64,000 nt of DNA. Origin: an uncultured Bacteroidales bacterium (lineage in GTDB: Bacteria; Bacteroidota; Bacteroidia; Bacteroidales; Paludibacteraceae). Position 1 is the stretch's first letter. Each line of letters starts with the position of its first letter. The position numbers and the translations under genes are program-made. The notes below the pieces were generated by a model. The model worked only from the letters and a program-made list of their open reading frames with translations, ran no database searches and was not told the origin of the DNA. Below are positions 32,834-58,388 of the stretch, piece by piece. The DNA is taken from positions 95,695 to 159,694 of the forward strand of contig CADCEV010000002.1 in the NCBI GenBank assembly GCA_902800525.1, given 5' to 3'.

Positions 32834-35467
32834 TTATTTTACTAAACTACCTTCTGCGCTGTATATCCGTCCGTCACGGATGATGTAAAGAATGCCGTCA
32901 ATCATCTGTTTACGCGCTTTGTTGCTTGTGTTCAACTCATCCATTCCTGTGGCAATAGAAGGTGAGTTGTAAGGCGTCTTGCTAATGATGAAACGTGCCT
33001 CTTCATCGTCAGGCGTACTGTAGAACGTATAACTGCTTGCATCTGTAATTGGTGTTGAAACCTGCTCTTTCATATCATTCAGGTAGTACGTCTGATCGCC
33101 CGTATATTGGAAAGTCAGCGTATATACATCATCTTCGCTGCCGGCTTTGAAACCAAGTAACTGTCCCTCTATTTCAGGTACGCTATTGATAGACATATTT
33201 CCATCCTCGGTGATAGCGTAGAATTTAGGTGCATAACCGGCACCGCCTATTTTGCGTCCGTCACAGCCGTTATCGTAACCGGATGTAAACTCTTGACCTA
33301 TGTATGTCATTACACGGTCGCCGTATCCGCTTTCACCGGTTACATCCATATGTAACTTAATAGAAGGTGTGCTATTTTCTGCCAACTGTCGTGGAGCGTG
33401 AAGTGGTTTGATCTTAACATCACTGGCTGCTGGCTCGTAAACTAATCTCTTATAATCCAGTGTCAGGGTGTGCGGATCATTTACTGCGCCTGTTATATGA
33501 ACCATTACCGCCTGCATCGAAGGGATGACAGTATAATCTCCAAAATCTTCCGGGTGTGCCTTTACAGTCACAATAGGCATATTTTGCCATTGTCCGGCTG
33601 ATGTGCCGCGTGCTCCCCCTGCGTTTTCTACTTGCGAAGCAGTTCCGGCATTGAAAATAAATAGTTCTGCATCCATTCCTACAAAGTCTGTTGTCTCCAT
33701 TTGAGTGACATCTATCGGAGCCGTCCAACTATTGGCAAACATCTCATCTGTCGCTATAGATGCCGATACATCTTCTGCTCTGCGGGTAAAGTTCACTACA
33801 TGGTCTTTATTGGTGGTTGTTCCCGGGAAGTTAAGTGTTCCGTCAAGCCAATAACTGCCTGCACTTGCATCCCTGCGAAGAATATTGTATGCATGGAAAG
33901 CACGCATTGGCGCGTAGCTGTAGATGTTTGTCCATGAGTTAGAGGATACGGTATATTCATACAAGTAAGTACCTGTTGCGGCATATGCGCCGGTGTTTGT
34001 GTTCTCAAAAGGAATACCGAAATATTGGTTAACCCAACCATGAGTGGCATCTTTGTATGCCTTGGTATAAAACTGAACCGTCGCTTGCGTATTATTACTC
34101 TCTTCGCCTGTTATTAACGCACCGGTACCGTTCTCGTCGGAGAGAATCACCAAATCGCTGCTGCTCGTTCCTCCGAAGGCTCCGTCGGCAAACTTACTGA
34201 TCTTACTATCCACAATAAGCGCCTGGTCAGCTCTGATAGTGAGCGAACCACTTCCCTTGAGCACCACCTCTTTCGCCCTGGCATCTGCTACATCAATCGT
34301 CATCGGCTCATTGATCACCACAATGTCATCCTCTGTCGGCGCAATCGCCAGACCGTCCCAACTGCCTCCTTCGCCTGCTGTTAAGGAAATAATGTTTGGC
34401 AGCGTAACCAAGGAAACTCCGGTTAAAGTACTTCCGTTGCGCCAATAAAGAATCATGGATTTGTTCTCTTTCTCCGAGAAATCCAACGTGTTAAATGTAA
34501 AGGTATATGTATTAGTAGTTTTTGGTGTTCCTATACTTACGGCGCCGGTAGTTGTACTACCCATTTTTGCGACTACTTTGTTGGCTGTGCCAATGTTTGC
34601 CACAACTTCTATATCTTTTTGTGTCCATTGGGTTACTTCCGCCTCTACCGGATCCACACAAGCAAACTTATAGTCGTTATATACCGGATTGGTGATGGTT
34701 AGATAATATGAGTTGGATGCCTCGCAATAATCGCCATTAGCTGCTATTGTTGCAGTGATCAATGCCTCACCTGTCCCTGTGAAACTCACCACACCTGTTG
34801 AGGGGTTAATTGAGAATCCCTCATCATCAGTTGTTAATTCATAACTTATTGTTCCGCTACCTGCGCTGGCAGTGGGCGTCTGGCTATAGGTTCCGGCAGC
34901 AACGGTTTGCGTTACATCCGAATTGGCAAAACTCAACGTCCGTGAACTACATGGAGCATTGGCTATAATCGTAAAAGGAATACTAAGTGTGCCCGTTACT
35001 TCCCATTCTGAGTCATAACATGTGATGTCCAAACTCCCTGAAAAGTTACCGGATGATGCTACTGTGTAGTAAAAATATATATTTGCATATGTGTTAGCAT
35101 CTGTTGAGTGATATATATAATATAAATTATTTTCTTTTGAATCTGCAGTGCTTGAATGAATAGAAACTTCTACATTGTCTGCAAAATCACCAGTTCCCTC
35201 AACGCTCCAATAAGTACTCCCATATAGAGCAGGAGATGTTATGTTGATAGTATAACTATCCGTCCATCCGCTCATCCATGCTTCTTCATCAAAATCTCCT
35301 TCAATAACAATCTCGCTAACAGGATTACCTCCTTTAGTCACGTTTACTGTCGTTCCCCACACGTTTCCATTCATCCCTACCAACATTAGGAACATGCAAA
35401 TATATTTGATAGACTGTTTCATACTTGTATTGAATAATGTATTGTTCATAACTTTTAAATTCTTCAT
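32834..35467 (-). CDS. Secreted cell-surface repeat protein, 877 aa
   Basis: Signal peptide ending NVWG. Ig-like N-terminal modules. Its C-terminal ~450-aa module is co-linear with the C-terminus of the 2735-aa protein and ends with the shared tag YIIRDGRIYSAEGSLVK. Confidence 0.8.
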   Translation of the reverse strand: MKNLKVMNNTLFNTSMKQSIKYICMFLMLVGMNGNVWGTTVNVTKGGNPVSEIVIEGDFDEEAWMSGWTDSYTINITSPALYGSTYWSVEGTGDFADNVEVSIHSSTADSKENNLYYIYHSTDANTYANIYFYYTVASSGNFSGSLDITCYDSEWEVTGTLSIPFTIIANAPCSSRTLSFANSDVTQTVAAGTYSQTPTASAGSGTISYELTTDDEGFSINPSTGVVSFTGTGEALITATIAANGDYCEASNSYYLTITNPVYNDYKFACVDPVEAEVTQWTQKDIEVVANIGTANKVVAKMGSTTTGAVSIGTPKTTNTYTFTFNTLDFSEKENKSMILYWRNGSTLTGVSLVTLPNIISLTAGEGGSWDGLAIAPTEDDIVVINEPMTIDVADARAKEVVLKGSGSLTIRADQALIVDSKISKFADGAFGGTSSSDLVILSDENGTGALITGEESNNTQATVQFYTKAYKDATHGWVNQYFGIPFENTNTGAYAATGTYLYEYTVSSNSWTNIYSYAPMRAFHAYNILRRDASAGSYWLDGTLNFPGTTTNKDHVVNFTRRAEDVSASIATDEMFANSWTAPIDVTQMETTDFVGMDAELFIFNAGTASQVENAGGARGTSAGQWQNMPIVTVKAHPEDFGDYTVIPSMQAVMVHITGAVNDPHTLTLDYKRLVYEPAASDVKIKPLHAPRQLAENSTPSIKLHMDVTGESGYGDRVMTYIGQEFTSGYDNGCDGRKIGGAGYAPKFYAITEDGNMSINSVPEIEGQLLGFKAGSEDDVYTLTFQYTGDQTYYLNDMKEQVSTPITDASSYTFYSTPDDEEARFIISKTPYNSPSIATGMDELNTSNKARKQMIDGILYIIRDGRIYSAEGSLVK

Positions 35468-35491: not shown

Positions 35492-38400
35492 TCACTCAAT
35501 GGTGCTCCATACGGCGAAGTAGGTCTTGCCGTCTCGATCCTGTGTATCAATACTTGCGCCGGCTGTATAGAAATAGCCCGTGGCTGCCTCAATAGCCGCT
35601 TTGTCTGGCGCTGTATCCGATTCACCGCTCATATACACCACCAATGGCGTCCATTCGCTGTCTATCCATCCTACCAGGTGTTGGTGCGTCTTGTCGCACG
35701 CTTCACCATCCTCCACTATATCATCATTCGTCGGTGTCGCTTGATCTTTAGTGAATACACCTTCAGGAGTAGTCGCCACTACATCGCTGAAATTCACACC
35801 ATGAACAATATCTACGAAATGTACTCGCGGCAATGGCTTAACAGTTACATCAATAGTAGCCGTCTTGCTCGGATCGGAGGATGCTGTCAAAGTCACGGTT
35901 TCAACTTGAACCTTGGTGACTGATTTACCGGTTATGGTAATATTGTCATTACTTCGCCCGATGGTTACATAACTATACGATCCTGTAGTATAGCCTTTCG
36001 TGGTTACGTTCACCGGGTCATATGTTACTGCTATCTCCTCGCTTTCGCCAACATATAGTTCCGTAGCTGACTTCGCTACTTGAATATTGCTCAGTGCCAC
36101 CGGAACGACATTGACGGTTACCTTGGCATAGGTACCGCTGCCATCGTTGGCGGTGATGATAATCTCTGCCGTGCCTGCTGCTTTAGCTACCAGTCTGCCG
36201 GTGGATTTGGTGAACTCTATCACGCTGTTAGTCGTCAATTCGTTTCCGTCAAATACCTGTGCTACGCCATTCACGGTAGCCGACCATGTGTAGCCTTTGT
36301 TCAGTGCGTTTGCCGGTAATACATCTCCTGCGGTGATACTCAGTTTGTGACCAAACACATCTGCTGGACTACTCGTCTTGCCTTCTGTCGGATAGAGGTT
36401 AAGCACCACATTGCTTCCGGTCTCCGTGGAAATAGTGGCATCCTTATTGTCCAACTTGGTCGCGGTCAAAGAAAGTCCTGTCACTAATATCGGTGTTGTC
36501 GTTGCGGTCGCAGCCACCGTCATATTAGCATCTTTCGGATAGGTAAGTGTATAGGTCTGAGCGCTCTCCAATGGCAGCGAGATAGCCGGTTCTATACTGC
36601 TGTAACCGCTTCCGAAACTCAATGCCGTCACCTTATATCCGGCTGTCGGAGTGACGGTCGCGTGTACCGTGTTCGTTCCTCCGCAACTCGGAATCGGCGA
36701 CAAGGCTTGTTCTGTGTAGGTGATCGTTCCGTTTGAAATGGTAGAAGCGCCTAATGTCAACAAGTTGTCGCAGCATTCTGTCACATAGTTGGTTACCGAT
36801 ACCGGGGTATAAGTGTATTCCAATGTCGCATTGTAATACCGCACATTGTAACCGGTCTCCTTCGTATGGTAAATACGCACGCCATATGCTGAATTGACGT
36901 TACCGAAAGGCATATCTACTTGGAATGTGGAGCCGCCGGCATCAGTAACCTTGTCGGTCAACACTTGCGGTACACCTAACTCGTCGCCGTTGGCATCAAG
37001 CCATACGGCATAGACGTTATTGGTTAATGGATTCTTCGTTGTTCCTCCGCCTATCGAAGCATATAGGGTTACCTTCGTCGGAATGCGTAACTCATTCTCG
37101 GGAATGAGCGGAGTAGAGGTGTCGCTTTTCTTGAATTGAACATAGCGTTTTTCTCCATCGCTGGAGCCATCTTCAAAATAGGTGGCGCTAGATCCTCCGG
37201 CTGATGCATTGAATGCAAATCCGCTTGTAACCGTGTTGGTGCTGCTGGATCTGCTCCACGAGGCAAGCGTCTCCGATTCGCTTTCCAAGTTCTGCTTGTA
37301 GGCAAACACAGCGTAATAGGTCACGTCGCCATCTAATGCAGGCGCGTCTTCGGCATCGTCAAACAAGCCCAACGCTTCTATATCTTCTCCGTTCACCGGT
37401 ACAAAACCGATATTAGTGCTGCTCCAGCCTGCGAAATAGTTTGCACAATCGCCGATGGTGGAACCGCTTGGCTCAGTCGGTAAACTACTAACGGCAGAAC
37501 CATGTTTTGCAACTTCCGTCGGGTCGCCGGTGGTGTACGCCTCGTTATTCACTACCCACGCTACGGAAACAGGCGCGTAGAACACGGCTTTTACCGTCAC
37601 ATTGCCTGTCGGTGTTCCGCTCAGGGTGGTGTTCATGTCGCTTGCATCAACGAAACTCAATCCTTTGTTTCCGCCTACAAACTCCCATTGCTTGAACGCA
37701 TAGTTCGTACTGCCTTCGCTGGCACTCAGCGTCATTCCTGTGCCCTCTGCGCTTACGCCCAAAGCATCAATCGCTCCTCCGCTTACTGTCGCTTTGTTAA
37801 CTGTCAGCGTATAAACATTGATAGCTTGGTCGGCCTCTTTGTCTTCGTAAGAAATGGTAATATTGCTGTTGGAAGACGTCAAAGCGGTAGTCGGACTGAA
37901 CGTACATAGCGGTGTCACCGGCTCACTCGTCTCGTCCGAATAATAGGCGGTTACTACCATTCCTGCCGTGCTGAATGTCTCGCCTTCCAAATAGGCGGCA
38001 CGGGGCGCTGTGGTGATAGCTATACTGCTCAACGTCTTCGAGGACTTGGTTCGAACTGCACCGCTGGCATCGCTCACGGGGCCTCCTGCGCAATAAACCA
38101 GATCATCACCAATGGTCTGAACTTTGAAATAGTATTCCGTGCTCTCTTCCAAACCGGCAAACGTCGCGCTGACTGTCGGAGCATCAACTACTATCGGATT
38201 TACCGTCGCACTTGCCGGACTTGTACATTCTGCATCCGAATAAAGGGTTACCCGGTATTGTGAGGCATTGGCGGCTGCTGTCCAACCTACGGTCAATGAG
38301 TTGGTCGTAGCCGCTCCTGTCTGGCTCAAACCGCTGGCTGTGCCCGGCTGAGTGCAACAACGCGCTACATAATCTTCATATTCGCCATAATCAACGCTGA

Positions 38401-41260
38401 AATCCCATATGCGAATAGCACCACTCGCTGTTATATATCCGGTAGTCAGTCCTAATGCCTCACAATCCAATGTAATAGAAGAACCGCCTGTTCCGGAAAC
38501 AGCCGTTCCGGATGCCACACCGGCTGCTGCGGTAGTATTGTTATTGCTGCTACTGAAATACAGCGTTGCGATATTATTACCTCCATCTCTTGCTTGAGAA
38601 GTTCCGGATACCGTCATCGTAATTGACTTAATTGTCGCCGGCATAGTGGGCACTTGAACGTAATAAGCCGTAGGAGAATCGTAAGTCCTAATTTGTAAGA
38701 AATGAACATCACTGGTAGCGTTACTATGTTGATTTTTTATAGCATATGCATTCCAAGTGGATTCTTCGCTATCTGTTATCGCATATGAGCCATAACCAGT
38801 ACCACCTGCCCCGTCTTCCTTAATCTCTTCGCTACGGAGTGTGCGTGTTCCGCCGTTTTTATTGGAAGCAAACACAGCGCGATAGGTTACATCCTCCGTC
38901 AACGCCTCTACATTCGGACTGCCGGCGCTCTTGAATAGCTTAAGATCCGCTACATCGTCGCCGTTAACCGGATCTACTCCAATTGCTGCGGCACTCCAAC
39001 CTACAAAGGTCTCTGTACAACTCGGCGCCTCTGCCGGAGCAGTAGGCAAAGCACTAATCTTGCCGCCATAGGCTACCTCGGTCGTCTGACTACCTGCCGG
39101 TGCATCATCCAAACCTATCTTCCATGTCACAATAATGGGCTTGTAATATACAGCGGTTACGGTAACCGAACCTGTCGGATTAGTAATCGTGTTCTCTTTG
39201 ACATCCTCATCATCGCCTAACTCTGCTCCGCTTATCTGCCACTCTTTGAAGACATAGTTTGCAGCATCATCATCCGGACTAATCGCTATACCTTCGCGGT
39301 TCGGCGTTCCGGGACCTCCAACGGCTATCGCATTTCCATCCTCGTCTTGCGCTTGCATCGTCACGCCATAGACGGTCACAGCCGTCGTGGCGGTCTTGCT
39401 TCCGTCGGTCGTGGTACAAGTGATCGTCGCTGTGCCGGCAGCAGCACCGGTTACTACACCCAAACCGTTTACACTCGCCTTGCTGTCATCGCTCGATGAC
39501 CAACCTACGCTCTTATCCGTCGCGTCAACAGGAGATACTGTCGGAGTAATACTGAAACTCTCACCCGGTATAATCGCTTTGCTGGTAGGACTAACCTCTA
39601 CGCTCGTCACATTGACCGTCTCGTCCACAATCGTCACTACCATTTCATCGTTCTGCTCACATTTGTTTGTACTGGTGTTGATATCTTGGTGGGCTCTGAC
39701 TGTAACCGTTCCGGCGCTTATCGGGGTTAGCGTCGTGCCTTCTATGCTGGCGCTTCCTGTGCCATCTACTACACTCCAACTAACTGTCATCCCGTTTCCG
39801 CCTGCCGAACTTAGAGACAGTGTTTTGTCTAACGCAACACCGTCAGCACTCGTGATACCCAATGCCGTTGCCGGATCTGTACAACAACGCGTGCGGTAAT
39901 TAGTATAGGTGTGGTCGCGCCAGACGGCATAAAGGGTATATGTATCACTATTGGTTGAGGTTAGGTTGATTACACTCTGTCCGTCTGTATAATCAACAGT
40001 TCCTGCTAATGCACGAGAAGAACTGGTTGCCCAGCCAGCAAAATATTTATGCGTTGGAGGCGTATAGGTGTTAGTGCTTAAAGCCTGCGTCTCATCGTAT
40101 GTGAAGTTTTGGCTGCTCATTATAGTTCCGGAACCACCATTTGCATTAAATGCAACGCTATAACTATTCGGTGTCCACTGAGCGTAGAAGGTCACATTTC
40201 CATTACCGGTGTATGTCCCGCTTAATGAATGCTCCTCTCCGCTGGCTGAACCGAGAAGCCAATTGGTAAGCCGATAACCCATTTTGCTCATGCCCGAACC
40301 ATTGGAAAGGGTAAAATCAATCCCATGATCTTTATATGCAGACACAACAGAACCCGTGCCGCCATTGTTGTTGTAATCAATTGTATAGCGTTGCAAAGTA
40401 GTGAACGAAGTTTGTGTTCCATAACCCGTTCCGAATCCATTCGTCGCGTACGGACGTACGTAGTATGTTGTATTAGGTGTTAATCCTGTCAAATTATGAC
40501 TGAATGCCGTGCCGGTTGTAGTATAAGTCGTTCCCTTCTCATAAGTAGTAGTCCCCTCTGCACTTAATTCCGGGTTTGCACTCGGTCCAACTACAAATCC
40601 ATAACTGGTAACTGTACATCCACCAACTCCCAAAGCACTCAAACCGCTTGCACAACTAATGGTTGCTGTAGTCGATCTCAAATCACCATAACTTCCTGCC
40701 GTCACTGTCGGTGCAGCAGTACAGGCAGCTACGGAGTATGTTACAGTGATTGATTTTATCCATACTGATTTATCACTTGCACCGTTAGTGACTGATATGG
40801 CAATTTCACCAGTCGCAGATCCACTAAAAGTATAACTTTTATTTTTATTAGAAGTTCCGCTCGCAATAGAAAGCGATGTATTACTGCCATTTTTAAATGT
40901 TGTACTTCCTACAGATACTGCTAATGAAGAACTCGATCCATTAGTTGAAGCTACAATACTTACGGAGGTAATTGTACCAATTTGAGTCGTTGTTATAATA
41001 GGATCGGCACCACTAGAAAATTGTAAGCCGCGATCAGATGCTTCAAATCCATTCGGAGCGATTGAAGAAGCCCACGACCAACCTCCGGATACACAAGGAA
41101 GTGGATTTTTGCTGTCCTCCCATGGCTTTGAACCTGATTTCGCGGCAAAGGTTGTAGTTTTTTCCGCTCCCCATACATTCCCCACAACCAAAGCCATAGC
41201 AACCACCATCACTACGCGTTTCGCAATTCTCATATATGTCGTATTGAATAAAGTCTTCAT
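35492..41260 (-). CDS. Giant secreted cell-surface repeat protein, 1922 aa (Listeria-Bacteroides/InlB-B repeats, Big_2 and Big_3-type Ig-like domains, FN3-like modules)
   Basis: Signal peptide ending NVWG. YTIDYNNNGGTG...FYAQW and YSVAFNANGGSG...LYAVW repeats. Big_2-like VTSVEVSPTSKAIIPGESF...TATITC. Big_3-like LSSIAITTAPRAAYLEGETFSTAGMVVTAYY. Confidence 0.88.
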   Translation of the reverse strand: MKTLFNTTYMRIAKRVVMVVAMALVVGNVWGAEKTTTFAAKSGSKPWEDSKNPLPCVSGGWSWASSIAPNGFEASDRGLQFSSGADPIITTTQIGTITSVSIVASTNGSSSSLAVSVGSTTFKNGSNTSLSIASGTSNKNKSYTFSGSATGEIAISVTNGASDKSVWIKSITVTYSVAACTAAPTVTAGSYGDLRSTTATISCASGLSALGVGGCTVTSYGFVVGPSANPELSAEGTTTYEKGTTYTTTGTAFSHNLTGLTPNTTYYVRPYATNGFGTGYGTQTSFTTLQRYTIDYNNNGGTGSVVSAYKDHGIDFTLSNGSGMSKMGYRLTNWLLGSASGEEHSLSGTYTGNGNVTFYAQWTPNSYSVAFNANGGSGTIMSSQNFTYDETQALSTNTYTPPTHKYFAGWATSSSRALAGTVDYTDGQSVINLTSTNSDTYTLYAVWRDHTYTNYRTRCCTDPATALGITSADGVALDKTLSLSSAGGNGMTVSWSVVDGTGSASIEGTTLTPISAGTVTVRAHQDINTSTNKCEQNDEMVVTIVDETVNVTSVEVSPTSKAIIPGESFSITPTVSPVDATDKSVGWSSSDDSKASVNGLGVVTGAAAGTATITCTTTDGSKTATTAVTVYGVTMQAQDEDGNAIAVGGPGTPNREGIAISPDDDAANYVFKEWQISGAELGDDEDVKENTITNPTGSVTVTAVYYKPIIVTWKIGLDDAPAGSQTTEVAYGGKISALPTAPAEAPSCTETFVGWSAAAIGVDPVNGDDVADLKLFKSAGSPNVEALTEDVTYRAVFASNKNGGTRTLRSEEIKEDGAGGTGYGSYAITDSEESTWNAYAIKNQHSNATSDVHFLQIRTYDSPTAYYVQVPTMPATIKSITMTVSGTSQARDGGNNIATLYFSSSNNNTTAAAGVASGTAVSGTGGSSITLDCEALGLTTGYITASGAIRIWDFSVDYGEYEDYVARCCTQPGTASGLSQTGAATTNSLTVGWTAAANASQYRVTLYSDAECTSPASATVNPIVVDAPTVSATFAGLEESTEYYFKVQTIGDDLVYCAGGPVSDASGAVRTKSSKTLSSIAITTAPRAAYLEGETFSTAGMVVTAYYSDETSEPVTPLCTFSPTTALTSSNSNITISYEDKEADQAINVYTLTVNKATVSGGAIDALGVSAEGTGMTLSASEGSTNYAFKQWEFVGGNKGLSFVDASDMNTTLSGTPTGNVTVKAVFYAPVSVAWVVNNEAYTTGDPTEVAKHGSAVSSLPTEPSGSTIGDCANYFAGWSSTNIGFVPVNGEDIEALGLFDDAEDAPALDGDVTYYAVFAYKQNLESESETLASWSRSSSTNTVTSGFAFNASAGGSSATYFEDGSSDGEKRYVQFKKSDTSTPLIPENELRIPTKVTLYASIGGGTTKNPLTNNVYAVWLDANGDELGVPQVLTDKVTDAGGSTFQVDMPFGNVNSAYGVRIYHTKETGYNVRYYNATLEYTYTPVSVTNYVTECCDNLLTLGASTISNGTITYTEQALSPIPSCGGTNTVHATVTPTAGYKVTALSFGSGYSSIEPAISLPLESAQTYTLTYPKDANMTVAATATTTPILVTGLSLTATKLDNKDATISTETGSNVVLNLYPTEGKTSSPADVFGHKLSITAGDVLPANALNKGYTWSATVNGVAQVFDGNELTTNSVIEFTKSTGRLVAKAAGTAEIIITANDGSGTYAKVTVNVVPVALSNIQVAKSATELYVGESEEIAVTYDPVNVTTKGYTTGSYSYVTIGRSNDNITITGKSVTKVQVETVTLTASSDPSKTATIDVTVKPLPRVHFVDIVHGVNFSDVVATTPEGVFTKDQATPTNDDIVEDGEACDKTHQHLVGWIDSEWTPLVVYMSGESDTAPDKAAIEAATGYFYTAGASIDTQDRDGKTYFAVWSTIE

Positions 41261-41281
41261 AATTCTATAATGTTCATTATT

Positions 41282-41305
41282 AACTCTTCACTCTTAACTT
41301 TTCAC
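41282..41305. repeat. AACTCTT/CACTCTT heptamer array (3 units)
   Basis: Lies in the 49-nt spacer between the 747-aa and 1922-aa genes. Confidence 0.7.
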
Positions 41306-41309
41306 CCCC

Positions 41310-43553
41310 TTATTCCGCATAATCCGCAAAAACTGCGTAGAACACTTGATCGCCCGTAGCGTTCGGGAATTCCGATGCCGTAGTATAAAGTTCCGAACTA
41401 CCATGCACATAAGCGCCGCCTTCTGCGTCTGTCCAGCCCATAAACCGGTCTCCGCAGAATTCTCCCGTGGTAGGCGCAGTCGGTAACGTACTTATATGCC
41501 CGCCTCCGTTCACTGTGGTAGAACCGCCTTTATCGGACCATTCTGATCCATCAACCATCCAGGTTACGTTGTATTGAATAGTGAATGTGCCGCTCAATTG
41601 ATTAGAATTACTACATCCGTCTTTCCATGCAATAGCCTTGATCTTAGTTACAACCGTCATGTGAATAGGACCATCATATTCTGTACTGCTTTCTGACGGA
41701 GTTCCGGGCGTAGTTCCATCTTCGGTCAAGGTATAGTAAATCTTATCACCATAAGTGGTACTCAATTCAACATCTTGCGGACCGGAATGTGTTCCGGCTG
41801 CTGGAGATGCAGTCGGAACAGCACATTTAATGGTATAGGTGCCCGACTTTTGGTCAGATTTCGTATATCCGCTCTTGAATGCTCTCGCTTTTAAGGTTTT
41901 GGTTGTAGAAAAGGTAATGGCACTGGTATAAATCGTGCTACTTTCCGTCGGATCACTTCCGTCCAATGTATATCGGATAACTGCATCTGTAGTCCCGCAT
42001 GTGATGGTAATATCTTGTGACCCAATATATGTGTTAGTCTCAGCACTCAAACTCGGCTGTTCACATTTAAGCGTATAGGCGGCACTAACCATACTTGAAG
42101 CCGTATAGCCGCTCTTGAATACTTTTGCTTTCAGCGTTTTGGATGAAGTGATTGCAATTGCGCTGGAATAAACAGCACTACTCTCTGTCGGTGTCGTTCC
42201 ATCCAGCGTATAACGAATAGTTGCTCCGGCTGTTGTCGTGCTAATTGTTGTGCTCTGATCATTATAATACGTACCACCGGTAAGAGTGATTGTCGGATTA
42301 ACGCAAACCATCGTATAAGTTGCACTCGCCACATCAGAATCCGAGCACCCGGATTTTACTGCGATTGCCTTTATTGTCTGCGTGGCATTGACAGTAATAG
42401 CGCTGCTATATAAAGTACTGTTTGTCGTCGGGGTCGTACCATCCGTGGTGTAATAAATACTTGTTCCAAAAGTCGTAGAGAGAGTGACATCGACATCATT
42501 GTTTTTTGTGCCGCCTGCGACAGAGAATGTAGGCGTAGCACATTTTATGGTGTATGTCGCCGAAGCAACATCTGATGCAGTCAAGCCGGCTTTAAATGCT
42601 TTTGCTTTAATCGTTTTACTCGCATCCACTGTAATGGCAGAACTATATGCAGTACTGCTCCCTGTAGGATCTGTTCCGTCGGTCGTATAGCGAATCGTTG
42701 CTCCGGCAGTACCACAACTAAGTGTTACACTCTTACTCGTCGTGTATGTTCCTTCTGCAACAGAGAACGTGGGAGCTGCTACGGCTACTTCGTCATAAGT
42801 TAATGTGTACTCTGTTGTATATACGGCACATGCGTATCCTCCGTAAATCTTGTATCCGGTTACAGCAGATGTAGGGCTGAAGGTAAAAATATTCCAATTT
42901 GCATTACTTGAACTACTTCCTGTAGTCACAGAAGTTGTTGTTTGAGCATTGCCTACAACTCCTCCTGTACTATTTAATAGAACTACGCTCAAACTATTCG
43001 AATAACCGGAAGCTGCGGTATTACAAACTGCTTTGACACGAATAGTAAGAGAAAAATTACTATACTGACCATTAGATAGTACATTCTTTAGTGCGGTGAT
43101 GTTGTAGTCACTTACATACCAATTGGTATTTTTCCCGTATCCACCACAATAAGAAGTACCACTTTTATTTGTCCATCCAGAAGAAATCGTAATGGAAGTT
43201 GGACCTAACGTGGATGCTCCCCAAGCATCCCCGACGCCTATAATTAAAAGCATTGCCAGCATAGCAGCAATGTGCGCCCATTTACGACTCGATTTTGAGA
43301 CGGTCGTTGGAGATAAGAAGGAAATAAGTTGGAGGTTTGTTTGTGCCTCCCCCTCCTTCACTCTACTGCCCTTCTTCTCATTGTTTGCGAAAAATGGCAT
43401 GAGACTTTTGAGACTTTTGAGACTTTCAGAAAAAATTGCACTGGCAGTTTTGTCAGTTTTGACAGTTTTCTGATTTTTGTGGTTGTTTCTAATTTCCATA
43501 TCTTCTATCTTTTCCATATCTTTTGTCTTATTTGTGTCCTTTGTGAACACCAA
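41310..43553 (-). CDS. Secreted repeat protein, up to 747 aa, with ~6 tandem ~75-aa chitobiase/hexosaminidase-C-like (CHB_HEX_C_1-type) domains
   Basis: Repeats of the form TFSVAEGTY..VTLS....ATIRYTTDGTDPT.SST.YSSAITV..T.TIKA.A.K.G...S.V.SATYT. The hydrophobic signal region ends in DAWG. The start is uncertain: the track uses the TTG at 43553, and the first ATG before the signal region is at 43400. Confidence 0.8.
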   Translation of the reverse strand: MVFTKDTNKTKDMEKIEDMEIRNNHKNQKTVKTDKTASAIFSESLKSLKSLMPFFANNEKKGSRVKEGEAQTNLQLISFLSPTTVSKSSRKWAHIAAMLAMLLIIGVGDAWGASTLGPTSITISSGWTNKSGTSYCGGYGKNTNWYVSDYNITALKNVLSNGQYSNFSLTIRVKAVCNTAASGYSNSLSVVLLNSTGGVVGNAQTTTSVTTGSSSSNANWNIFTFSPTSAVTGYKIYGGYACAVYTTEYTLTYDEVAVAAPTFSVAEGTYTTSKSVTLSCGTAGATIRYTTDGTDPTGSSTAYSSAITVDASKTIKAKAFKAGLTASDVASATYTIKCATPTFSVAGGTKNNDVDVTLSTTFGTSIYYTTDGTTPTTNSTLYSSAITVNATQTIKAIAVKSGCSDSDVASATYTMVCVNPTITLTGGTYYNDQSTTISTTTAGATIRYTLDGTTPTESSAVYSSAIAITSSKTLKAKVFKSGYTASSMVSAAYTLKCEQPSLSAETNTYIGSQDITITCGTTDAVIRYTLDGSDPTESSTIYTSAITFSTTKTLKARAFKSGYTKSDQKSGTYTIKCAVPTASPAAGTHSGPQDVELSTTYGDKIYYTLTEDGTTPGTPSESSTEYDGPIHMTVVTKIKAIAWKDGCSNSNQLSGTFTIQYNVTWMVDGSEWSDKGGSTTVNGGGHISTLPTAPTTGEFCGDRFMGWTDAEGGAYVHGSSELYTTASEFPNATGDQVFYAVFADYAE
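43401..43472. repeat. Two short 9-bp tandem arrays (GAGACTTTT x~3; CAGTTTTGN x3)
   Basis: gagacttttgagacttttgagacttt at 43401-43427 and cagttttgtcagttttgacagttttct at about 43445-43472. Both lie in the 5' region of the 747-aa ORF. Confidence 0.8.
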
Positions 43554-43587
43554 AATCTATTCCACCTGTTTAATCTGTGGATCTCCT

Positions 43588-43612
43588 AAACCGTCCCTTT
43601 TTTGTGTGCCAC
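43588..43612. repeat. Inverted repeat, left arm (AAACCGTCCCTTTTTTGTGTGCCAC)
   Basis: Exact reverse complement of 44015-44039 (25/25, checked base by base). Confidence 0.95.
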
Positions 43613-43804
43613 GCGCTCAAACGACTATGTGTGTGCGCGTTACGTACGCGCGATATATAAATAAGGTGTGGTTCTAAAAGTGCAGAAAAGCGCTACCGAA
43701 TAAAACATAAAATGTTGTATTATAACGTTTTTAGGTTTTTTTGTTAGGTAAAAATAGCAATATATATATTTTTGCATAAAAATAAAAAAAAAATTCTTAA
43801 AGAC

Positions 43805-43835
43805 TTGCGTATATCAAAAAAAAGTTGTACCTTTG
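43805..43835 (+). promoter_or_regulatory. Consensus promoter inside the IR-bounded segment, currently facing rightward
   Basis: TTGCGTATATCAAAAAAAAGTTGTACCTTTGCA: -33-like TTG at 43805 and -7 TACCTTTG at 43828-43835. Same extended motif as the udk, ttcA and pnp promoters in this window. Confidence 0.65.
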
Positions 43836-44014
43836 CACTCGCAATTGAAATTACAGTTCAGTTGGAAGTACCAACGGTTAAGACACTACTTCGACATGAC
43901 AAAATATTACTTCAATAGCAATTTAATAACTAATCCTCTGATCATTTGTGAGGGTTAGCAATACTGCGCACTATCTATTTCAGGTGGTGCGCTCTGCGTT
44001 TATTAAGTTGAGTA

Positions 44015-44039
44015 GTGGCACACAAAAAAGGGACGGTTT
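44015..44039. repeat. Inverted repeat, right arm (GTGGCACACAAAAAAGGGACGGTTT)
   Basis: Exact reverse complement of 43588-43612. Confidence 0.95.
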
Positions 44040-44103
44040 TGCGAAACCATTAAATAATTCGTAAGAGTGGTCATTGGAATGATGTATTTAGCGAAAAAAA
44101 TCG

Positions 44104-44111
44104 TAACTTTG
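44104..44111 (+). promoter_or_regulatory. -7 box (TAACTTTG) immediately upstream of the recombinase gene, outside the inverted repeats
   Basis: GCGAAAAAAATCGTAACTTTGCACTAAAAAAGCTTATG, with the ATG at 44126. Confidence 0.45.
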
Positions 44112-44125
44112 CACTAAAAAAGCTT

Positions 44126-44740
44126 ATGAAGTACGGTTATATTCGCGTTAGTAGCGACAAACAAACAGTTGAAAACCAGCGTTTTGAAATCAACCGGTTT
44201 TGCCTTCGGGAAGGTATCGCCGTGGACGGATGGATCGAAGAAACAGTCTCCGGCACACAGCCTTATTCCAAACGACAATTGGGCAAACTGCTCCACCATG
44301 TCAACAAAGGCGATCTCATCATCTGTAGCGAACTCAGCCGTTTGGGCAGAAACCTCTACATGATCATGGAGATCCTCAGTCTCTGCATGAACCGCGGTTG
44401 TGCGGTTTGGACCATCAAAGACGGTTACCGCCTCGGGGATGATCTTCAATCCAAAGTCTTAGCTTTCGCTTTTGGTCTCTCTGCTGAGATTGAACGAACG
44501 CTCATCAGTCAGCGGACACGAGAAGCCCTCGCGCGACTCAAAGCGGAAGGTAAACCCATCGGTCGCCCCAAAGGCAGCCGCACGCGCAAAGAGGCGCATC
44601 CTCTTTTCCGCCATGAGACCTATATCCGCCTCTCGCTCTCCCGCGGTACGTCCCAGCGTGAAATCGCCCGTCGCCTTCATTGCAACCGCAGCACCCTCCG
44701 CCGCTTCATCACATCTAACATGACAACCCCTAACCCCTAA
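44126..44740 (+). CDS. Serine site-specific recombinase (resolvase/invertase family; candidate DNA invertase)
   Basis: MKYGYIRVSSDKQTVENQ with the catalytic Ser in YIRVSS, SRLGRN, ERTLISQRTREALA, and a C-terminal HTH (SQREIARRLHCNRSTLRRF). 204 aa. Confidence 0.9.
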   Translation: MKYGYIRVSSDKQTVENQRFEINRFCLREGIAVDGWIEETVSGTQPYSKRQLGKLLHHVNKGDLIICSELSRLGRNLYMIMEILSLCMNRGCAVWTIKDGYRLGDDLQSKVLAFAFGLSAEIERTLISQRTREALARLKAEGKPIGRPKGSRTRKEAHPLFRHETYIRLSLSRGTSQREIARRLHCNRSTLRRFITSNMTTPNP

Positions 44741-44823
44741 CTCATCAGACATCAAACATAACACATCAAACATACCTTAGTGCCATCTCGCGGCACTTAA
44801 AAGCAGCGAGAAACGACCTTTGA

Positions 44824-44850
44824 CATAATGATATGATGAAAAATTATCTA
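44824..44850 (+). repeat. Start-codon repeat, copy A (CATAATGATATGATGAAAAATTATCTA)
   Basis: Direct copy of the 45175-45204 start region of the giant gene and inverted copy of 45113-45138. Followed only by an 11-codon ORF. Confidence 0.7.
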
Positions 44851-45129
44851 CAGAGAATGGACCGATAATGCATCTTTATCATTGGGCGTTAGGGTATAGT
44901 AATACGGGGTCTGACTGGATGGCAAAGCCGTTAAACCCCAATTGGACGTACCACTATAATGGAATCCGGAGCCATCAATACCCAATACGTAAACGGCATT
45001 AGCATCAATACCTGATATAGACTCCAAGCGTGTGTACGTATAACCCCATGCTTGTCCCAAACTGAGTGTTAATAACATCAATGGCACTAAAAGCCATTTA
45101 AATTTAGAAGAGATAAAATTTGTCATCAT
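44848..45129 (-). CDS. 93-aa signal-peptide-bearing fragment, paralogous to the N-terminus of the 2735-aa protein
   Basis: Signal peptide ending QAWG. VYVLGIDGSGFHYSGTSNWG resembles KYVIGNYNGSKYLAATSGNWG of the giant protein. The ORF exactly fills the space between repeat copies A and B. It may be a cassette or a pseudogene remnant. Confidence 0.45.
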   Translation of the reverse strand: MMTNFISSKFKWLLVPLMLLTLSLGQAWGYTYTRLESISGIDANAVYVLGIDGSGFHYSGTSNWGLTALPSSQTPYYYTLTPNDKDALSVHSL

Positions 45130-45138
45130 ATTGTTATG
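45113..45138 (-). repeat. Start-codon repeat, copy B (inverted)
   Basis: The reverse complement CATAACAATATGATGACAAATTTTAT matches copy A at about 21/26 positions, with a perfect 9-nt core ATATGATGA. Confidence 0.65.
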
Positions 45139-45174
45139 TTAATTATGTTTGCGTTGGGTTGTAAATATTTAAAA

Positions 45175-45204
45175 CACAATGATATGAAGAAAAGATTATT
45201 TACA
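45175..45204 (+). repeat. Start-codon repeat, copy C (start of the giant gene)
   Basis: CACAATGATATGAAGAAAAGATTATTTAC. Similarity to copy A continues for about 45 nt. Confidence 0.65.
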
Positions 45205-48200
45205 AATTTTCGAAGGATGATAGGCATCGTCCTATTAGCATGTTTGGCGAACACTAATGTGTGGGCTACTTTAACTGCGGATAGTATTGTTACCACTGCT
45301 TCTACATCTCTTGTTGATGGAGGAAAGTATGTCATTGGCAACTATAATGGATCAAAATATTTGGCAGCAACAAGTGGAAACTGGGGTAGTATTGCAACCC
45401 TAAGTTCAGCCTACGTTTTTACTGTACACGGAAGTGCAACTGCGTTTTATGTTACATGTGTAGATGGCACCTTAAAAACGGCTAGCGCAAAATCATGGGG
45501 AGGTTATGATAATAGTACTAGTAATAACATCAAATTAAGTAACAGTGGAGATATAATTAAATACGGAGCTACGAAACCATATCTCAAGATAAATGGAACC
45601 TCCGGCTTTAGATGGTACGATTCTGGACAAACAGCAGTTTATATGTATCAGGTTGGTTTCAATATCTTCTTTACACAACCTGCTTCAGGTGGTTCTATTG
45701 CTGCGACATCAACTGTTGCTACTTTTAATAACTCTAAGAACTTAATGGCGGGTGTATACAAGACAAAAACCGTTACACTTACAGCAACTCCACCTTCAGG
45801 AAAAACAGTCAATGCTTGGACGGTTAAGAAGAAGTCTGATAATTCTGATGTTACTTCTACTGTCTTGTCCGGGACAACTCTTACAATGCCTGCTTATGAT
45901 GTGGTTGTGAGCGTCACTTGGAGAGATGCTGCTTCTTGTGCGGTTAATCCTACCGTGGGTGGTTCAGAAAAAGGTTCTATTTCTTGCACCACCGCGACGA
46001 TTAATTGTAACAACGGTTCTGACAAGGGTGTTGTGAAGGGAAGTTGCGACATTTCAGAGTGGGGATTTGTGTATGGAGCAAGTAGCAATCCTACTGGCAA
46101 TAAAACCAGCAAAGGTACAAATGCAGAGGGTGATGTGGCTAATTTTAGTCACACGTTTACCAATTTAACTCCAGGTGCAACGTATTATGTTCGTGCTTAT
46201 GCAATTGTGAACGGAACAACATATTATGGAACAGAGACGAGTTTTACGACTAAAACGATTACAGTAACCGCTAATAATGGAAGTTATGGCTCTGTATCCG
46301 GAGAAGGATTAAGTTGGACAGGTTCTCCTAACTCGGGATATGTATATGCAAGTCCGGCTTATACGATTACAGCTGGTAACAATACCACAGTAGAAAAAGA
46401 AGGAAATACGTTTACGATCACTTCTACTTCGACGGAAAATGTAGAGATCACGATTAACTTTGAGCCGAAGGGATGTGAAGAAAAAGGAGCATCAAGTATA
46501 ACGAGTGGTACAAGCACAGGTTATACATCTGGTCCTGTGGACGAATACTACAAATATAGTGCTCGTCAAATTCTTTATACAAAATCTGACTTAGGATTAG
46601 CTGCAGGAAAGAAAGGTGTCATCAAGTCCATTTATTTCCAGTATAGTTATAACACGGCTATGTCAAAAAAGACCAATGTGGATATTTATTTGGCGAACAC
46701 AAATTTGACAAGTCTTTCAACAAGTTCTTACGTGCCATTTGCTAATTTCACCAAGGTATATACAGGTGCTTTGAATTGTTCTGGTAATGGCACATGGAAT
46801 GAAATAACGTTCGATGATTCATTTGAATATAATGGTATAGGTCAGTTAGTAGTTTTGATAGACGACAACTCAAATCAATATGATGGTTCCGATTATAAAT
46901 TCAAATATCATTCAGGAGTAAGCGGAGCGCAAATCTATATGCGCGACGACAATTCAAACATTGACCCATCTAGTGCTAGTACATGGACAAGTGCTAATGA
47001 ACTCACAGATCGTCCTAACACTAAGTTCTGTATAGAAGAAAAGGATATGGTAAAATCAACAGTATCCTTTAGTACAGGAACGGGTAATACAGCGCAAGCA
47101 AATATAACTGAATCCTCTGCTGGTTCCGGTATTACTTTGCCGGCAGGTCCTACGCCAAAGTGTTCTGCTGATGGTTGGAGTTTTGCGGGTTGGGTTGAAT
47201 CTGAGGTGTCAAGTGAGACAACTACTGCTCCAACATTACTCACAGCAGGTGATACCTATTATCCTGCATCTAATATAACGCTTTACGCAGTATATGTAAA
47301 AAGTGAAGCTGCAGCAAATGCTACGACAACGACATATACCCTCAACGGTAACTGGACTACAAATAATGGCAATTGGACAAAAGTAGATGGTAATAACCTT
47401 AGTCAAGTGTCGTCGAAATGGGGACTTACTAGTGGTTCATCGACGGCTGTTTCTCCATCTTCATGGACAGATATTGAAACTATTACCTTTACCGGATCAA
47501 AATCAGATGCAGGAGCAGGTTCGGTCGCTTTCTATTATGGATCTGGTGACTCATGGACTTTAATCGAAAGTAAAAGTTTTGGTACTTCGTTAACATGGTC
47601 TCCGAATCCTAAAGTCACAGGAGAGTTAAAATGCGTCTTTACACGTACGAATGGAAATATCTATATCGCATCAATTGCTGTGAAGGGAAAGATCACAGTT
47701 AGCACCTATTTTAGCAACCCGACATGTTGCGAAACGTTAGCAGATATCAACGGTGAAGTTGAGTTTACTGATCCGACAACGGCTGTGGTAACATGGGATA
47801 AACTGGCAAATGTGGCTGCATCGAATGCATATGCAGTTTCATACAGAACAGGTGAGGCTGCTTATGGAACAACGAATGTGGGTGCTATTGATTTGACAGG
47901 AAGCAAAGCAACTTGCACGATTACAGGTTTGGGTTGTAATACAAGTTATGATATTAAGATTGCGGTAACGGCAGCAACCGGCTATTGCGACAAAGAGCAA
48001 GTGATTGCAAGTCAAAACTCCGGCAAATATGCGATTACATTGAACGGAAACGGAACTATTACCGGTGGTACGTTTGAGGCAGATGAGACTTCAGCTTGTG
48101 ATGGTGCTACGATTACATTAAGCGCAAGCAAGAGTGCAGGATATAATTTCAACAGTTGGGCTATTTCGGATGGTAATAATATCACTGCTGATGTCCTCAA

Positions 48201-51200
48201 GGATGGTTATGCTGCAACAGACGATATCGTTGAAATCACGATGCCGGCTAAGGATATTACTATTAACGCTTCGTTTAGTACGATATCTTATGATATTACG
48301 TACGCGAACATGGAGGGTGCTACTAACCATGTAAGCAATCCTGCTAACTATACAATAGAAAGCTCGGATATTTCGTTAGGCAATCCGACGAAGGAAGGCT
48401 TTAACTTCGGTGGTTGGTTCGTAGATAGCGATTTGGCTGTAGGTCACGAGGCAGGTTCGCCGGCAATTGCGGCAGGTTCGACCGGTAATAAGACATTCTA
48501 TGCAAAATGGATCGCTGATGATAAATGGAACGTGGCTATTACGACTCCGAGCAACGGAAGTATAAGCGTGACATATGAGGGTATGGAGTCAGCGTTGACA
48601 AGTGGTTCGAGAGAGATAGCAAAGAACACAGTTATTACGATTACTGCTACTCCGAGTGCGGGATATTCATTGGAATCGTTGAAGATAGGCGATGCTGATT
48701 TTACAAGTGGTAATACCCATACATTGACTTCGTCGATAGTTATCTCTGCAACGTTCTCTATTATCAATTATAGTATTACGTATAACAACATGGAGGGCGC
48801 TACCAACCATGAGGATAATGTTGCAAGTTATACTATTGAAGCGGCAGAAGACGTATTGCTGAATGATGCTTCTAAGACGGGATATCATTTTGATGGTTGG
48901 TTCACCGACAATGGAACTTGGGAGAATCAGATAATGTGGATTGATAAGGGATCTACCGGCAATGTAGTTGTTTATGCAAAATGGACAGCAAATACGTATC
49001 AAGTTACTATTGATAAGAATTATGGTACGGCAGGTACTGTTGATGTAACGGCTACATTTGATGCTGCAATGCCGAGTCTGACTGGAAAATCAATAAGTCG
49101 CTCTGGATATAATTTAGCAGGTATCTTTGCGAACAATGATGGTACTGGTACGAAGTATTACAATGCAGATAAGACCAGCGCGCATGAATGGGATCAGGCA
49201 CAAGATAAGACCATCTATGCAACTTGGAGCCCGAAGAATTATACTATCACGCTGAATAACGAAGGCGCCGATACCGGTCATGAAGGTACGGCAAGTATTG
49301 CGGTCACATTTGATAGTAGCGATAATCTGACAAGTGCTATAGATAGACCGGAAAAGGAGGGCTACAAGTTCTGCGGATACTTCACGGAAACAGGTGGAGC
49401 AGGCACTCAACTTATTGGAGAGGACGGAAATGTTATTGCAAGCGTATCTAACTACACAAGTTCTACAAAGCAATGGAAGAAAGCAGGAGATGTGGAATTA
49501 CACGCGTTCTGGAAAGCTTGCCATACCGTAACTTGGTATGTGAACTCAACAGAGACACCGGAAATCGTAGTTCACGGAGAAAAGGTAGCGGCGATGCCGA
49601 CACCTCCCACTTCTGCGGAATGCGATGATGCGAAGAAGTTCGTAGGATGGCGTGCAGAGAAGATCACCGGTATTTCGCCGAGTACACCCGACGGTATCTT
49701 TACGGCCGTTGCAGGTTCACCTGAAGTTACGGAAGATGTAACATTCTATGCGGTATTTGCAACAGAAACGATAGGAGATATCGTTTTGGTTAAGAATATT
49801 AATGATTTGACAGATGGCGCAAAGGTTTACATCTACTCTGAATTTGAGGCAAGCGAAACAACTTATGGTGCTGTAGCAAAGGCATATGAAACTGGTAATA
49901 ATGTACGTGCCGTTTCCGGTACGGTTTCAAACGAAAAATTGACACCGGGTACTGGTGCTTGTGCATATACTTTCGGTAAAGTAAAAGTAGGCAATACCGA
50001 TTACTATACCTTTAACGATGGTACCTATTATTTGTATCCATCCGGTTCAGATAAAAACTATCTCGTAGGAGAAACAGATCTTAATGACAATGACTATAGT
50101 TTATTTACAGTAGAGATTAATACTACAACAGGTGTTGCATCTATCAATAGCAAGGGTAATACAAGTAGAGGCAAAATGCAATTCAATAAGAATGCTGATA
50201 CCGGCGATTATACGAAGGCTATATTTGCTTGCTATAAATCAGACGCTAGCCAAACTGATGTAAAACTATTCAAAAAGATTCCAGATGTATATTCCGACTA
50301 TGTTACCAAGTGTGCGTCGTGCGATGCGGATGCTACGTTTACAACGGCTTTACCGGCAGTAAGTGAAGAGGCTTGTACGAGTGCAACGGTAACGGCAACA
50401 GGTGGTTTAGCAACGTTAGGTTCAGAAGGTTGCAACATCAGCGACTATGGATTTGTTCTTGGTACAGCTACTAATCCTGTACTGGATGGTGAGGGCGTTA
50501 CTAAACTGCAAGTAGGTACGAGCAACCCGACCGTAGGTAATGACTTCTCGTATGACTTGACCGGTTTGACGAAGGGCACACACTATTATGTACGTGCATA
50601 CGCGGTCAATAAACACGGTGTTGCTTATAGCAGCACGAAGGACTTCTGGACGAAAGATGTAAGCAGCATTGCAATCACGACCGCTCCGACAAAGACCAAT
50701 TACATCGTAGGTGAGACGTTCGATGCAACGGGAATGGTTGTTACGGCTACTTTGGCTGGCGGAGCAACAGAGAATGTCTCGGAAGGCGTAACGTACTCGA
50801 GTGCTGCTTTGACGGCAGGAACAAACAATGACTTCACTGTAAGTTATACACTTTGCGAGACAGAGAAGACGGCTACGCAGAAAATCAATGTATATAGCGC
50901 TACAGTCACCGAAGGTACCAATGAGGATAAGGGCGTTATGGCATATGACAATGCCGGTACGATTACGATTAGCAGCTTGGCTGAACATACGACGGTTGAG
51001 TTTGTGAAGACGAATGCTGATATCCGCGACAACGGAGATGGTTCGTTCTCGATTATCAACCCAACGGGTACGGTAAATATCACGGTTAATTATGTAACGG
51101 CTGTTCAGGTGGCAGTTAAGTTCTATGCTAAAGGTACTGAATTGACAGGTTTGGCATTGAGTCCGTACCAGAGCGAGAACTTCGATATGCCTGATGCAAG

Positions 51201-53620: not shown

Positions 53621-53692
53621 CTGATTGTCGTAAAAAATGAAGAAAAATAAACGATTTTGCATAAAATATTTGGATTGTAACTAAAAAATAGT

Positions 53693-54321: not shown

Positions 54322-54339
54322 AAAATAGCGCATATTACC

Positions 54340-58374: not shown

Positions 58375-58388
58375 AGATTTATCTATTT

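Follow-up and report, generated by a model that had tools for sequence, protein, structure and literature searches.

A probable promoter inverton beside an Mpi-family invertase gene and a surface-protein operon in an uncultured ruminant Bacteroidales bacterium

Background

Invertible promoters (invertons) of the PhaseFinder type have been catalogued in Bacteroidota, with a common promoter motif and enrichment near surface genes and invertase genes (Jiang 2019, as cited in PMC10994844; PMC11892184). In this study, we analysed a 64,000-nt stretch (hereafter the window, meaning the whole stretch) of contig CADCEV010000002.1 from an uncultured ruminant Bacteroidales bacterium of the Paludibacteraceae type, and describe a 402-bp segment between perfect 25-bp inverted repeats (IRs) that shares element class, promoter motif and kind of neighbours with those invertons, but occurs in a ruminant Paludibacteraceae-like lineage outside those surveys. 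It lies between a four-gene operon for surface proteins and mpi, a gene for a small serine DNA invertase of the Mpi family. We consider it probable that the segment is a phase-variation switch, namely a promoter inverton flipped by the adjacent Mpi-family invertase, with the operon OFF in the window and ON when flipped. This is a known kind of switch, here in an unsurveyed lineage; worth noting are an unannotated hairpin RNA unit within the flipping segment and a promoter that would alternate between the invertase gene and the surface operon.

Hin, which inverts the H segment of Salmonella, and Gin, which inverts the G segment of phage Mu, are serine invertases of about 190-200 amino acids (aa) that require Fis and an enhancer located in the recombinase gene; hin lies inside its own 1-kb segment, which carries a promoter. 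The enzyme of the window is likewise a small serine invertase with Gin as its closest structure, and a related site beside an mpi homologue (locus L035) has the A-tract, GC core and T-tract of hix and gix; however, mpi stands 87 bp outside the segment, neither within it nor overlapping it. In E. coli, fimS is a promoter segment of about 300 bp with 9-bp IRs, turned by the tyrosine recombinases FimB and FimE, that switches an adhesin operon, and its orientation controls fimE through mRNA stability. Both loci place a promoter segment for an adhesin operon beside a recombinase gene, and as mpi could be driven by the inverton promoter, there would be room for orientation feedback on the recombinase level as in fimS, although recombinase class, IR length and the mRNA-stability route set fimS apart. 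The context of fimS has been treated elsewhere (PMC3911127). In a survey of gut invertons, invertase genes of the tyrosine-type cluster 3b are oriented so that the inverton promoter cannot drive them (PMC11892184), unlike mpi here.

Mpi of Bacteroides fragilis reportedly acts on at least 13 dispersed loci (Krinos 2001 and Coyne 2003, as cited in PMC5903667, PMC12632263 and PMC10403206). Both enzymes fall in the same NCBIfam equivalog family, and both systems place a Bacteroidota -33/-7 promoter on a short segment, bounded by IRs of about 20-25 bp, for the control of surface molecules. However, here one local target is seen instead of dispersed loci, the IR is unrelated to the B. fragilis core, which we take to be ARACGTWCGT, the cargo is a giant secreted protein operon without UpxY/UpxZ, the segment has roughly double the length and includes a conserved RNA unit, and in the commoner state the promoter is directed at the invertase gene. 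Next to mpi in B. fragilis, IVp-I (tsr19/BF2766) is an invertible promoter for an extracellular polysaccharide operon, flipped by an adjacent tyrosine recombinase (PMC4747536). The present locus also has an invertible promoter next to mpi that would control a neighbouring surface operon, but the window contains no tyrosine recombinase gene. In opsX/UpxY capsule leaders, a conserved hairpin element lies just downstream of an invertible promoter and the start codon follows a few nt later (PMC11685472). While the locus studied here also has a leader hairpin after an invertible promoter and a start codon shortly after it, the sequences are unrelated, the first gene encodes a CHB_HEX_C/Fn3_assoc repeat protein and not a NusG paralogue, so that the locus does not belong to that class, and in most species the element precedes a terminator rather than an operon.

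Inverted repeats and orientations of the segment

43588-43612, no strand: IR-L, presumed recombination site on the operon side, 25/25 complementary to 44015-44039, identical in 13/13 assemblies
43613-44014, no strand: invertible 402-bp segment, in the window orientation in 10 assemblies and reverse-complemented in 3
44015-44039, no strand: IR-R, presumed recombination site on the mpi side, pairing with IR-L

The sequence-only reading had claimed a perfect 25-bp IR with sharp ends around 402 bp that hold no convincing open reading frame (ORF), and had seen in this the architecture of a Bacteroidales inverton. The repeat was verified at 25/25 positions (the arm at 43588-43612 is AAACCGTCCCTTTTTTGTGTGCCAC, and 402 nt separates the arms), its complementarity ends abruptly both outside (T at 43587 against T at 44040) and inside (G at 43613 against A at 44014), and the longest ORF within the segment is no longer than 48 aa. 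The segment, at 402 bp, falls in the size range of short IR-bounded invertible segments (about 0.1-1 kb). With up to 3 mismatches allowed, the arm 25-mer has only two sites in 64 kb, where shuffled sequences give an expectation of 0, and no further site of the IR family was found within the window. The architecture is borne out by the adjacent Mpi-family invertase and by the occurrence of both orientations.

Orientation was compared in 13 independent metagenome or metagenome-assembled genome assemblies, that is, the window and 12 further ones, obtained from contigs with a 100% identical recombinase and from metagenome contigs scanned for the 25-mer. Ten of the 13 have the orientation of the window (state A; L001-L004, L006, L008-L010, L014 and L094), and 3/13 are flipped (state B; L005, L007, which is the same as L012, and L013), so the opposite orientation, which had been suggested as something to look for in related genomes, does exist. 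In state B, the interior of 402-403 bp is reverse-complemented at 98% identity, the flanks are unaltered, and the junctions fall exactly at the IRs. Single-nucleotide polymorphisms (SNPs) have gathered in the interior, whereas the arms are still perfect in each of the 13 assemblies. The interior SNP haplotypes differ between the flipped L005 and the flipped L013, and the left-flank haplotype of L005 is shared with the unflipped L006, L008 and L009; the inversion has therefore occurred more than once and is recurrent. The flipped contigs derive from large-k assemblies (L005, for example, is a k141 contig), in which the k-mers span the 25-bp IR, and thus reads spanning a repeat must support the flipped path. 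A further cluster, P0001, was tried for extra orientation observations, and its contig is too short to inform.

An alternating purine-pyrimidine tract (GTGTGTGCGCGTTACGTACGCGCGATATATA, 43630-43657) lies at the IR-L end of the segment, and L019 has a comparable one (CACACACATGAGTC...TACGCGCGTACG) some 60 nt ahead of its mpi promoter; the tract may serve as an accessory or regulatory site.

The Mpi-family invertase and related switches

44094-44113, + strand: promoter of mpi itself, outside the IR, with a -7 box TAACTTTG at 44104-44111 (motif match)
44126-44740, + strand: mpi, small serine DNA invertase of the Mpi family, 204 aa (NCBIfam NF009949; Pfam Resolvase and helix-turn-helix, HTH)

The start of a serine recombinase gene had been placed 87 bp beyond the right arm, and the ATG of mpi stands exactly there, at 44126. 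The 204-aa protein reaches 298.9 bits against NCBIfam NF009949, 'master DNA invertase Mpi family' (an equivalog with a cut-off of 272), with the Resolvase domain at residues 3-143 and the C-terminal HTH at 167-196, and its YIRVSS catalytic motif is intact and aligned with the active site of Gin, the closest solved structure. By Pfam annotation mpi is the sole recombinase gene across the window. Its product and a Bacteroides homologue (L089) share about 68% identity, and the GTDB representative (L014) carries a 100% identical copy. The adjacent enzyme is likely to catalyse the inversion, to judge from this adjacency and from related sites that recur beside its homologues.

Three other species, with mpi homologues of 71-75% protein identity, have such related IRs next to these genes, and in two of the species the IRs surround a promoter. 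In L035 and L029, mpi is preceded at a distance of 161-172 bp by a 249-bp promoter segment with AAACGACCCTTT(A/T)ATTGGTGCA in its repeats, and in the reference assembly the promoter of this segment faces mpi. The site of L035 is a dyad of 15+2+15, the layout of hix and gix sites. In L043, an 87-bp segment between GACCCTTTTTTTGATACC repeats directly follows a copy of the RNA unit described below. Aligned with the window repeat, these sites give the consensus AAAC-G(A/T)CCCTTT(T/A)(T/A)TTG-TGC. Unrelated repeat types were also found near very similar mpi genes, namely TTGTAGAGTATAAAA in L015, L018 and L020 and, in L019, ATTGGAATTACCGA on both sides of a promoter segment of 126 bp.

Two other arrangements around mpi homologues were seen. 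In L018, two mpi copies with identical N-terminal sequence (4001-4603 and 5768-6370) flank a ParE/RelE-like gene bounded by TTGTAGAGTATAAAA repeats. In L044, L045, L050, L066, L069 and L074 (Duncaniella, Prevotella, Porphyromonas and Aphodosoma), IRs of 29-268 nt lie 0.6-2.3 kb downstream of the mpi homologues, inside coding sequence with a GRDIKRY-type motif, and look like invertible restriction-modification specificity modules; many contigs in the set break just downstream of mpi.

The promoter and the RNA unit inside the segment

43805-43835, + strand: Bacteroidota-type promoter, with -33 TTGC at 43805-43808 and -7 box TACCTTTG at 43828-43835 (motif; predicted transcription start near 43842)
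43864-43893, + strand: 5' RNA hairpin, with the block AAGTACCAACGGTTAAGACACTACTT at 43866-43891, stem AAGUA/UACUU with covarying flanks and a 16-nt loop CCAACGGUUAAGACAC
43896-43958, + strand: short ORF of 20 aa (MTKYYFNSNLITNPLIICEG), its ATG 3-7 nt after the block in most copies
43966-43992, + strand: 3' hairpin GCGCACUAUCU/AGGUGGUGCGC with a weak U-tract, leaky-terminator candidate (folding)

The promoter was located where it had been proposed, on the + strand and pointing right, with TTGC 20 nt upstream of the -7 box. The -7 motifs of the segment lie on one strand only, aimed at mpi in the window orientation, so that by its motif the promoter is able to face a flanking gene. Its extended form, AAAAAAGTTGTACCTTTGCA, has 7 copies in the window at up to 3 mismatches, compared with 0.02 expected, and most of them immediately precede an ORF that reads in the same direction, among these udk, mpi, pnp and a PIN toxin gene divergent from ttcA; it is therefore a general strong promoter of this organism. 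The same motif had been reported upstream of udk, ttcA and pnp, which holds for udk and pnp, whereas the copy near ttcA lies upstream of the divergent PIN toxin gene. The segment promoter is predicted to be active, and the same promoter also stands at the head of the homologous RNA unit in other species.

Downstream of the promoter, the 26-nt block AAGTACCAACGGTTAAGACACTACTT is 26/26 identical in the mpi loci of 10 other species, whose recombinases are 71-82% identical. The hairpin that contains it shows covariation, with 9 double-change cells compared with 3.2 in shuffles and none of 500 shuffles as high; one covarying flank pair changes from U-A to G-C in L043. The loop CCAACGGUUAAGACAC is invariant in those ten copies, and the divergent L024 copy differs at three positions. 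A covariance model built from the copies (R1) matches the window, L013-15, L017-20, L023, L024, L027 (twice), L034, L038 and L043, always within about 2 kb of mpi, and the element is absent from the mpi loci of Prevotella, Bacteroides and Porphyromonas. Every copy consists of a consensus promoter, the block, a variable stretch, and a hairpin with a U-tract. No Rfam match was found at E<=1 in window 43000-45400, nor for the unit in five related loci, and a search across the window for base-pairing targets of the invariant loop gave nothing above background except its own antisense. The short ORF was rejected as the product of the unit, its peptides being barely conserved and the L024 copy lacking it, and we read the unit as an RNA rather than a protein gene: putatively an unannotated hairpin RNA, found beside mpi in about a dozen related species.

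The 3' hairpin of the window has homologues in L019, L038 and L024, and the comparison shows a compensatory change from C-G to U-A, but the U-tract of the window differs (UCUGCGUUUAUU, compared with UGUGUUUU in L019, CUUGUGUUUUU in L038 and UUGGUUUUUG in L024): the U-run is no longer than 3 in the window, 4-5 in these three loci and 7-9 in the other class of hairpin. The window hairpin does not pass the terminator scan. A degraded U-tract fits a leaky stop that would let the promoter read out of the segment.

In L027, two copies of the RNA unit (3673-3865 and 4654-4847) form an inverted repeat of 170-190 bp around the whole of mpi, with diverging promoters, and the mpi gene itself might be invertible there.

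The surface-protein operon and its leader

43401-43587, - strand: conserved 187-nt leader from IR-L to the first gene, with three short tandem arrays of 9-nt units (left-flank alignment)
41310-43400, - strand: gene 1, secreted protein of 696 aa with five CHB_HEX_C_1/Fn3_assoc repeats (Pfam; start and signal peptide from comparison with L005/L013)
35492-41260, - strand: gene 2, 1922 aa, signal peptide, Big_2, Listeria-Bacteroides repeat and Fn3, 49 nt after gene 1
32834-35467, - strand: gene 3, 877 aa, signal peptide, no known domain, 24-nt gap to gene 2
32437-32829, - strand: gene 4, 130 aa, signal peptide, C-terminal transmembrane helix and RRRR tail, 4-nt gap to gene 3

A four-gene surface-protein operon starting 35 nt from the left arm had been claimed; the four genes were confirmed, and all four products have signal peptides, but the start was misplaced by about 150 nt. 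The longest ORF of gene 1 begins with TTG at 43553, while comparison with L005 and L013 puts the true start at ATG 43400, from where the protein reads MPFFANNEKKGSRVK... and has a signal peptide ending in ...GDAWG. The n-region of this signal peptide is 26 aa longer in the window allele than in L005/L013, owing to an in-frame insertion (43243-43320).

On the - strand, which carries the operon, no TAnnTTTG was found from 39118 to 44752, and the 1.35 kb upstream of ATG 43400 is thus free of the -7 motif; the operon is therefore without a recognisable promoter unless the segment flips. Between IR-L and gene 1, the leader is kept among strains even where the downstream genes differ, and the genes to the right of mpi vary between strains as well. 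As the leader is conserved while both flanking gene sets vary, the conserved core consists of leader, inverton and mpi. The leader arrays (43400-43480) are made of TGAGACTTT x3 and CAGTTTTGT x4 in + strand letters, with a copy number that varies among strains (3 vs 5). L027 and L015 also have leaders with triple repeats of a similar kind after the RNA unit.

By Pfam, the operon contains no UpxY or UpxZ gene and the window no NusG-like gene. No domain for sorting by the type IX secretion system (T9SS) was detected by Pfam or NCBIfam in the surface proteins of 130, 877 and 2735 aa, the last encoded to the right of mpi, and these proteins may therefore use an unrecognised sorting signal. The 130-aa protein has a weak JDVT-CTERM-like match, and the proteins of 877 and 2735 aa have a C-terminal motif in common, ...Y(I/L)(I/L)RDG..Y...G..VK.

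Proposed mechanism

We propose that the Mpi-family invertase acts on the two 25-bp sites and turns the 402-bp segment round by recombination between them, probably with the crossover in the C(C)G(A/T)CCC core between the A-rich and T-rich half-sites, as in hix/gix. The segment would contain one strong Bacteroidota promoter firing in a single direction. In state A, the state of the window and of the majority, transcription would run toward mpi and the divergent operon (43400 to 32437) would be OFF. In state B, transcription from this promoter would begin on the minus strand near 43785, and the transcript would comprise the conserved hairpin RNA, the leaky hairpin, IR-L and the 187-nt leader before entering the operon, which would be ON. 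Going by the promoter motifs, this ON/OFF effect is the best reading of the locus.

Several observations weigh against this proposal. The exact IR is present at a single locus in the metagenome collection and is without the B. fragilis Mpi core that we assume (the core is also not enriched in the window, with 18 matches compared with 15 expected), so that a 'master' role is not supported and the pairing of enzyme and site is suggested only by their adjacency. Unrelated IR types stand beside very similar mpi genes in neighbouring species, and a comparison of recombinase HTH with IR type over 18 loci gave no clear pattern. The segment also looks like a self-contained RNA gene whose homologues in other species end in good terminators, and a terminator-like hairpin stands between the promoter and the segment exit; read-out of the segment could therefore be small. 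Promoter activity and read-through of the hairpin are both predictions. Finally, the orientation differences are seen between samples, and mixtures within one sample were not seen directly.

Alternative explanations

The best-surviving alternative, which extends the inverton explanation and is compatible with it, is a two-way toggle with feedback, in which the state A promoter would also read mpi and possibly the gene of a giant surface protein farther to the right, the two states would express alternative giant surface proteins, and the orientation would set recombinase dosage and switching rate. We regard this as possible, yet less probable than a switch acting on the left operon.

45184-53391, + strand: giant surface protein gene, 2735 aa, signal peptide, Flg_new, Flg_new_2, fn3 and Big_3 (Pfam), downstream of mpi

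The state A promoter is 284 nt from mpi and aimed at it, with only a weak hairpin between, and a terminator scan of the + strand found no terminator-like site from mpi to the giant gene, so read-through transcription into the giant gene could occur in the window orientation; in addition, the inverton promoters 161-172 bp upstream of mpi in L035 and L029 also face mpi, and state A is the commoner one (10/13). However, both genes have promoter sequence of their own (for mpi a good promoter beyond the IR, for the giant gene a -7 box at 45144-45151), an antisense ORF of 93 aa occupies the spacer between the two genes, and in other strains a 373-aa ATPase gene splits them.

A more elaborate and more tentative proposal is that the cassette is a complete small-RNA gene, of a new family in Paludibacteraceae-like rumen Bacteroidales, which was captured between Mpi sites with a weakened terminator. 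A single inversion would then re-aim the promoter between the invertase gene and the giant-adhesin operon, change the invertase dosage and thereby self-bias the switching rates, and move the hairpin RNA to the 5' end of another transcript.

It is rather unlikely that the switch concerns a phase-variable small RNA only, with transcription stopping inside the segment in either orientation, the flanking genes little or not affected, and the left operon driven from elsewhere or silent. Units of promoter, hairpin and terminator without flanking IRs do lie beside mpi in L017, L018, L023, L024, L027 (two copies), L034 and L038, most of these IR-free copies end in canonical terminators, and the RNA part of the segment has fewer variable columns than the upstream part (4 vs 11). 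On the other hand, flipping a self-contained gene would alter nothing, and it would then be hard to see why perfect 25-bp sites and recurrent flipping have been retained; moreover, the U-tract is degraded specifically in this species, and the operon, which has no other promoter motif, keeps a conserved leader abutting the IR.

Passive polymorphism, in which a rare RecA-dependent inversion became fixed in some strains without programmed switching, is very improbable. While it agrees with orientations that differ between samples and were not seen to differ within one, repeats of 25 bp offer very little length to homologous recombination, the flipped state occurs on at least two haplotypes with flanks shared with unflipped strains, a dedicated invertase gene adjoins the segment, and the IRs are perfect in 13/13 assemblies while the interior gains SNPs. 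That the IRs are the ends of a miniature inverted-repeat transposable element (MITE) or insertion sequence remnant, which the sequence-only reading had named as a refuting scenario, can practically be dismissed: terminal inverted repeats are present and nothing else, the 25-mer is confined to this locus (two copies in the window, and three contigs in the metagenome collection, all mpi-adjacent), there is no transposase and no target-site duplication at the segment ends (the flanks are CTCCT and TGCGA), and the internal 26-nt RNA block is absent from the viral contigs of IMG/VR.

Implications

Public assemblies alone thus give sequence-level evidence of Mpi-type promoter switching in uncultured ruminant Bacteroidales, where the switch would control giant adhesin-like proteins in place of capsules. 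These are likely to influence attachment to plant fibre, host or phage, and the locus offers a handle on surface heterogeneity in the rumen. The pairing of an Mpi-family enzyme with a local site of different sequence widens the target repertoire to be expected in inverton searches, and the mpi-adjacent hairpin RNA is an unannotated motif that could be followed cheaply in rumen metatranscriptomes.

Other features of the window

The region between mpi and the giant gene differs among strains. In L001 (3616-5109) and other strains, the 373-aa gene between them encodes an ATPase_2 protein (PF01637) and is missing from the window. At the window junction (44741-44840) there is a repeated sequence of about 70 nt with the palindrome AGTGCC...GGCACT, and this repeat suggests that the junction arose by deletion or insertion between repeats. 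The spacer also contains a second repeat pair (44820-44845 and 45117-45142; 26 nt, 85% complementary, AT-rich), which was considered as another inverton and set aside; it is imperfect, of marginal significance and absent from other strains. Bracketed by this 26-nt repeat is the 93-aa ORF (44848-45129, - strand), which has a signal peptide and a sequence like the N-terminus of the 2735-aa protein; it resembles a truncated and inverted paralogue that meets the giant gene head-to-head, and may represent a relic or else another invertible module.

The remaining genes of the window are, by Pfam, housekeeping, polysaccharide-synthesis and toxin-antitoxin genes only. The polysaccharide-synthesis locus (4068-11189), with genes for glycosyltransferases, an EpsG polymerase, a flippase and UDP-galactopyranose mutase, is driven by a fixed consensus promoter without flanking repeats (11170-11189); capsule-type genes are outside inversion control here, unlike in gut Bacteroides.

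A gene for a 23S_rRNA_IVP (four-helix-bundle) protein (58006-58374, - strand) lies within 57970-58503 between inverted arrays of 7-nt units, (AATTCAC)n on one side and (AATTGTG/CATTGTG)n on the other, and the homologue in L023 (677-1066) has these arrays too. From the giant gene to pnp, the toxin-antitoxin genes (among them NTP_transf_2/HEPN at 54726-55444) are punctuated by three copies of a 36-nt hairpin, CAAAAAAGAGCA...TGCTCTTTTTTG, at 53585-53625, 54334-54369 and 55501-55536, which resembles a bidirectional terminator.

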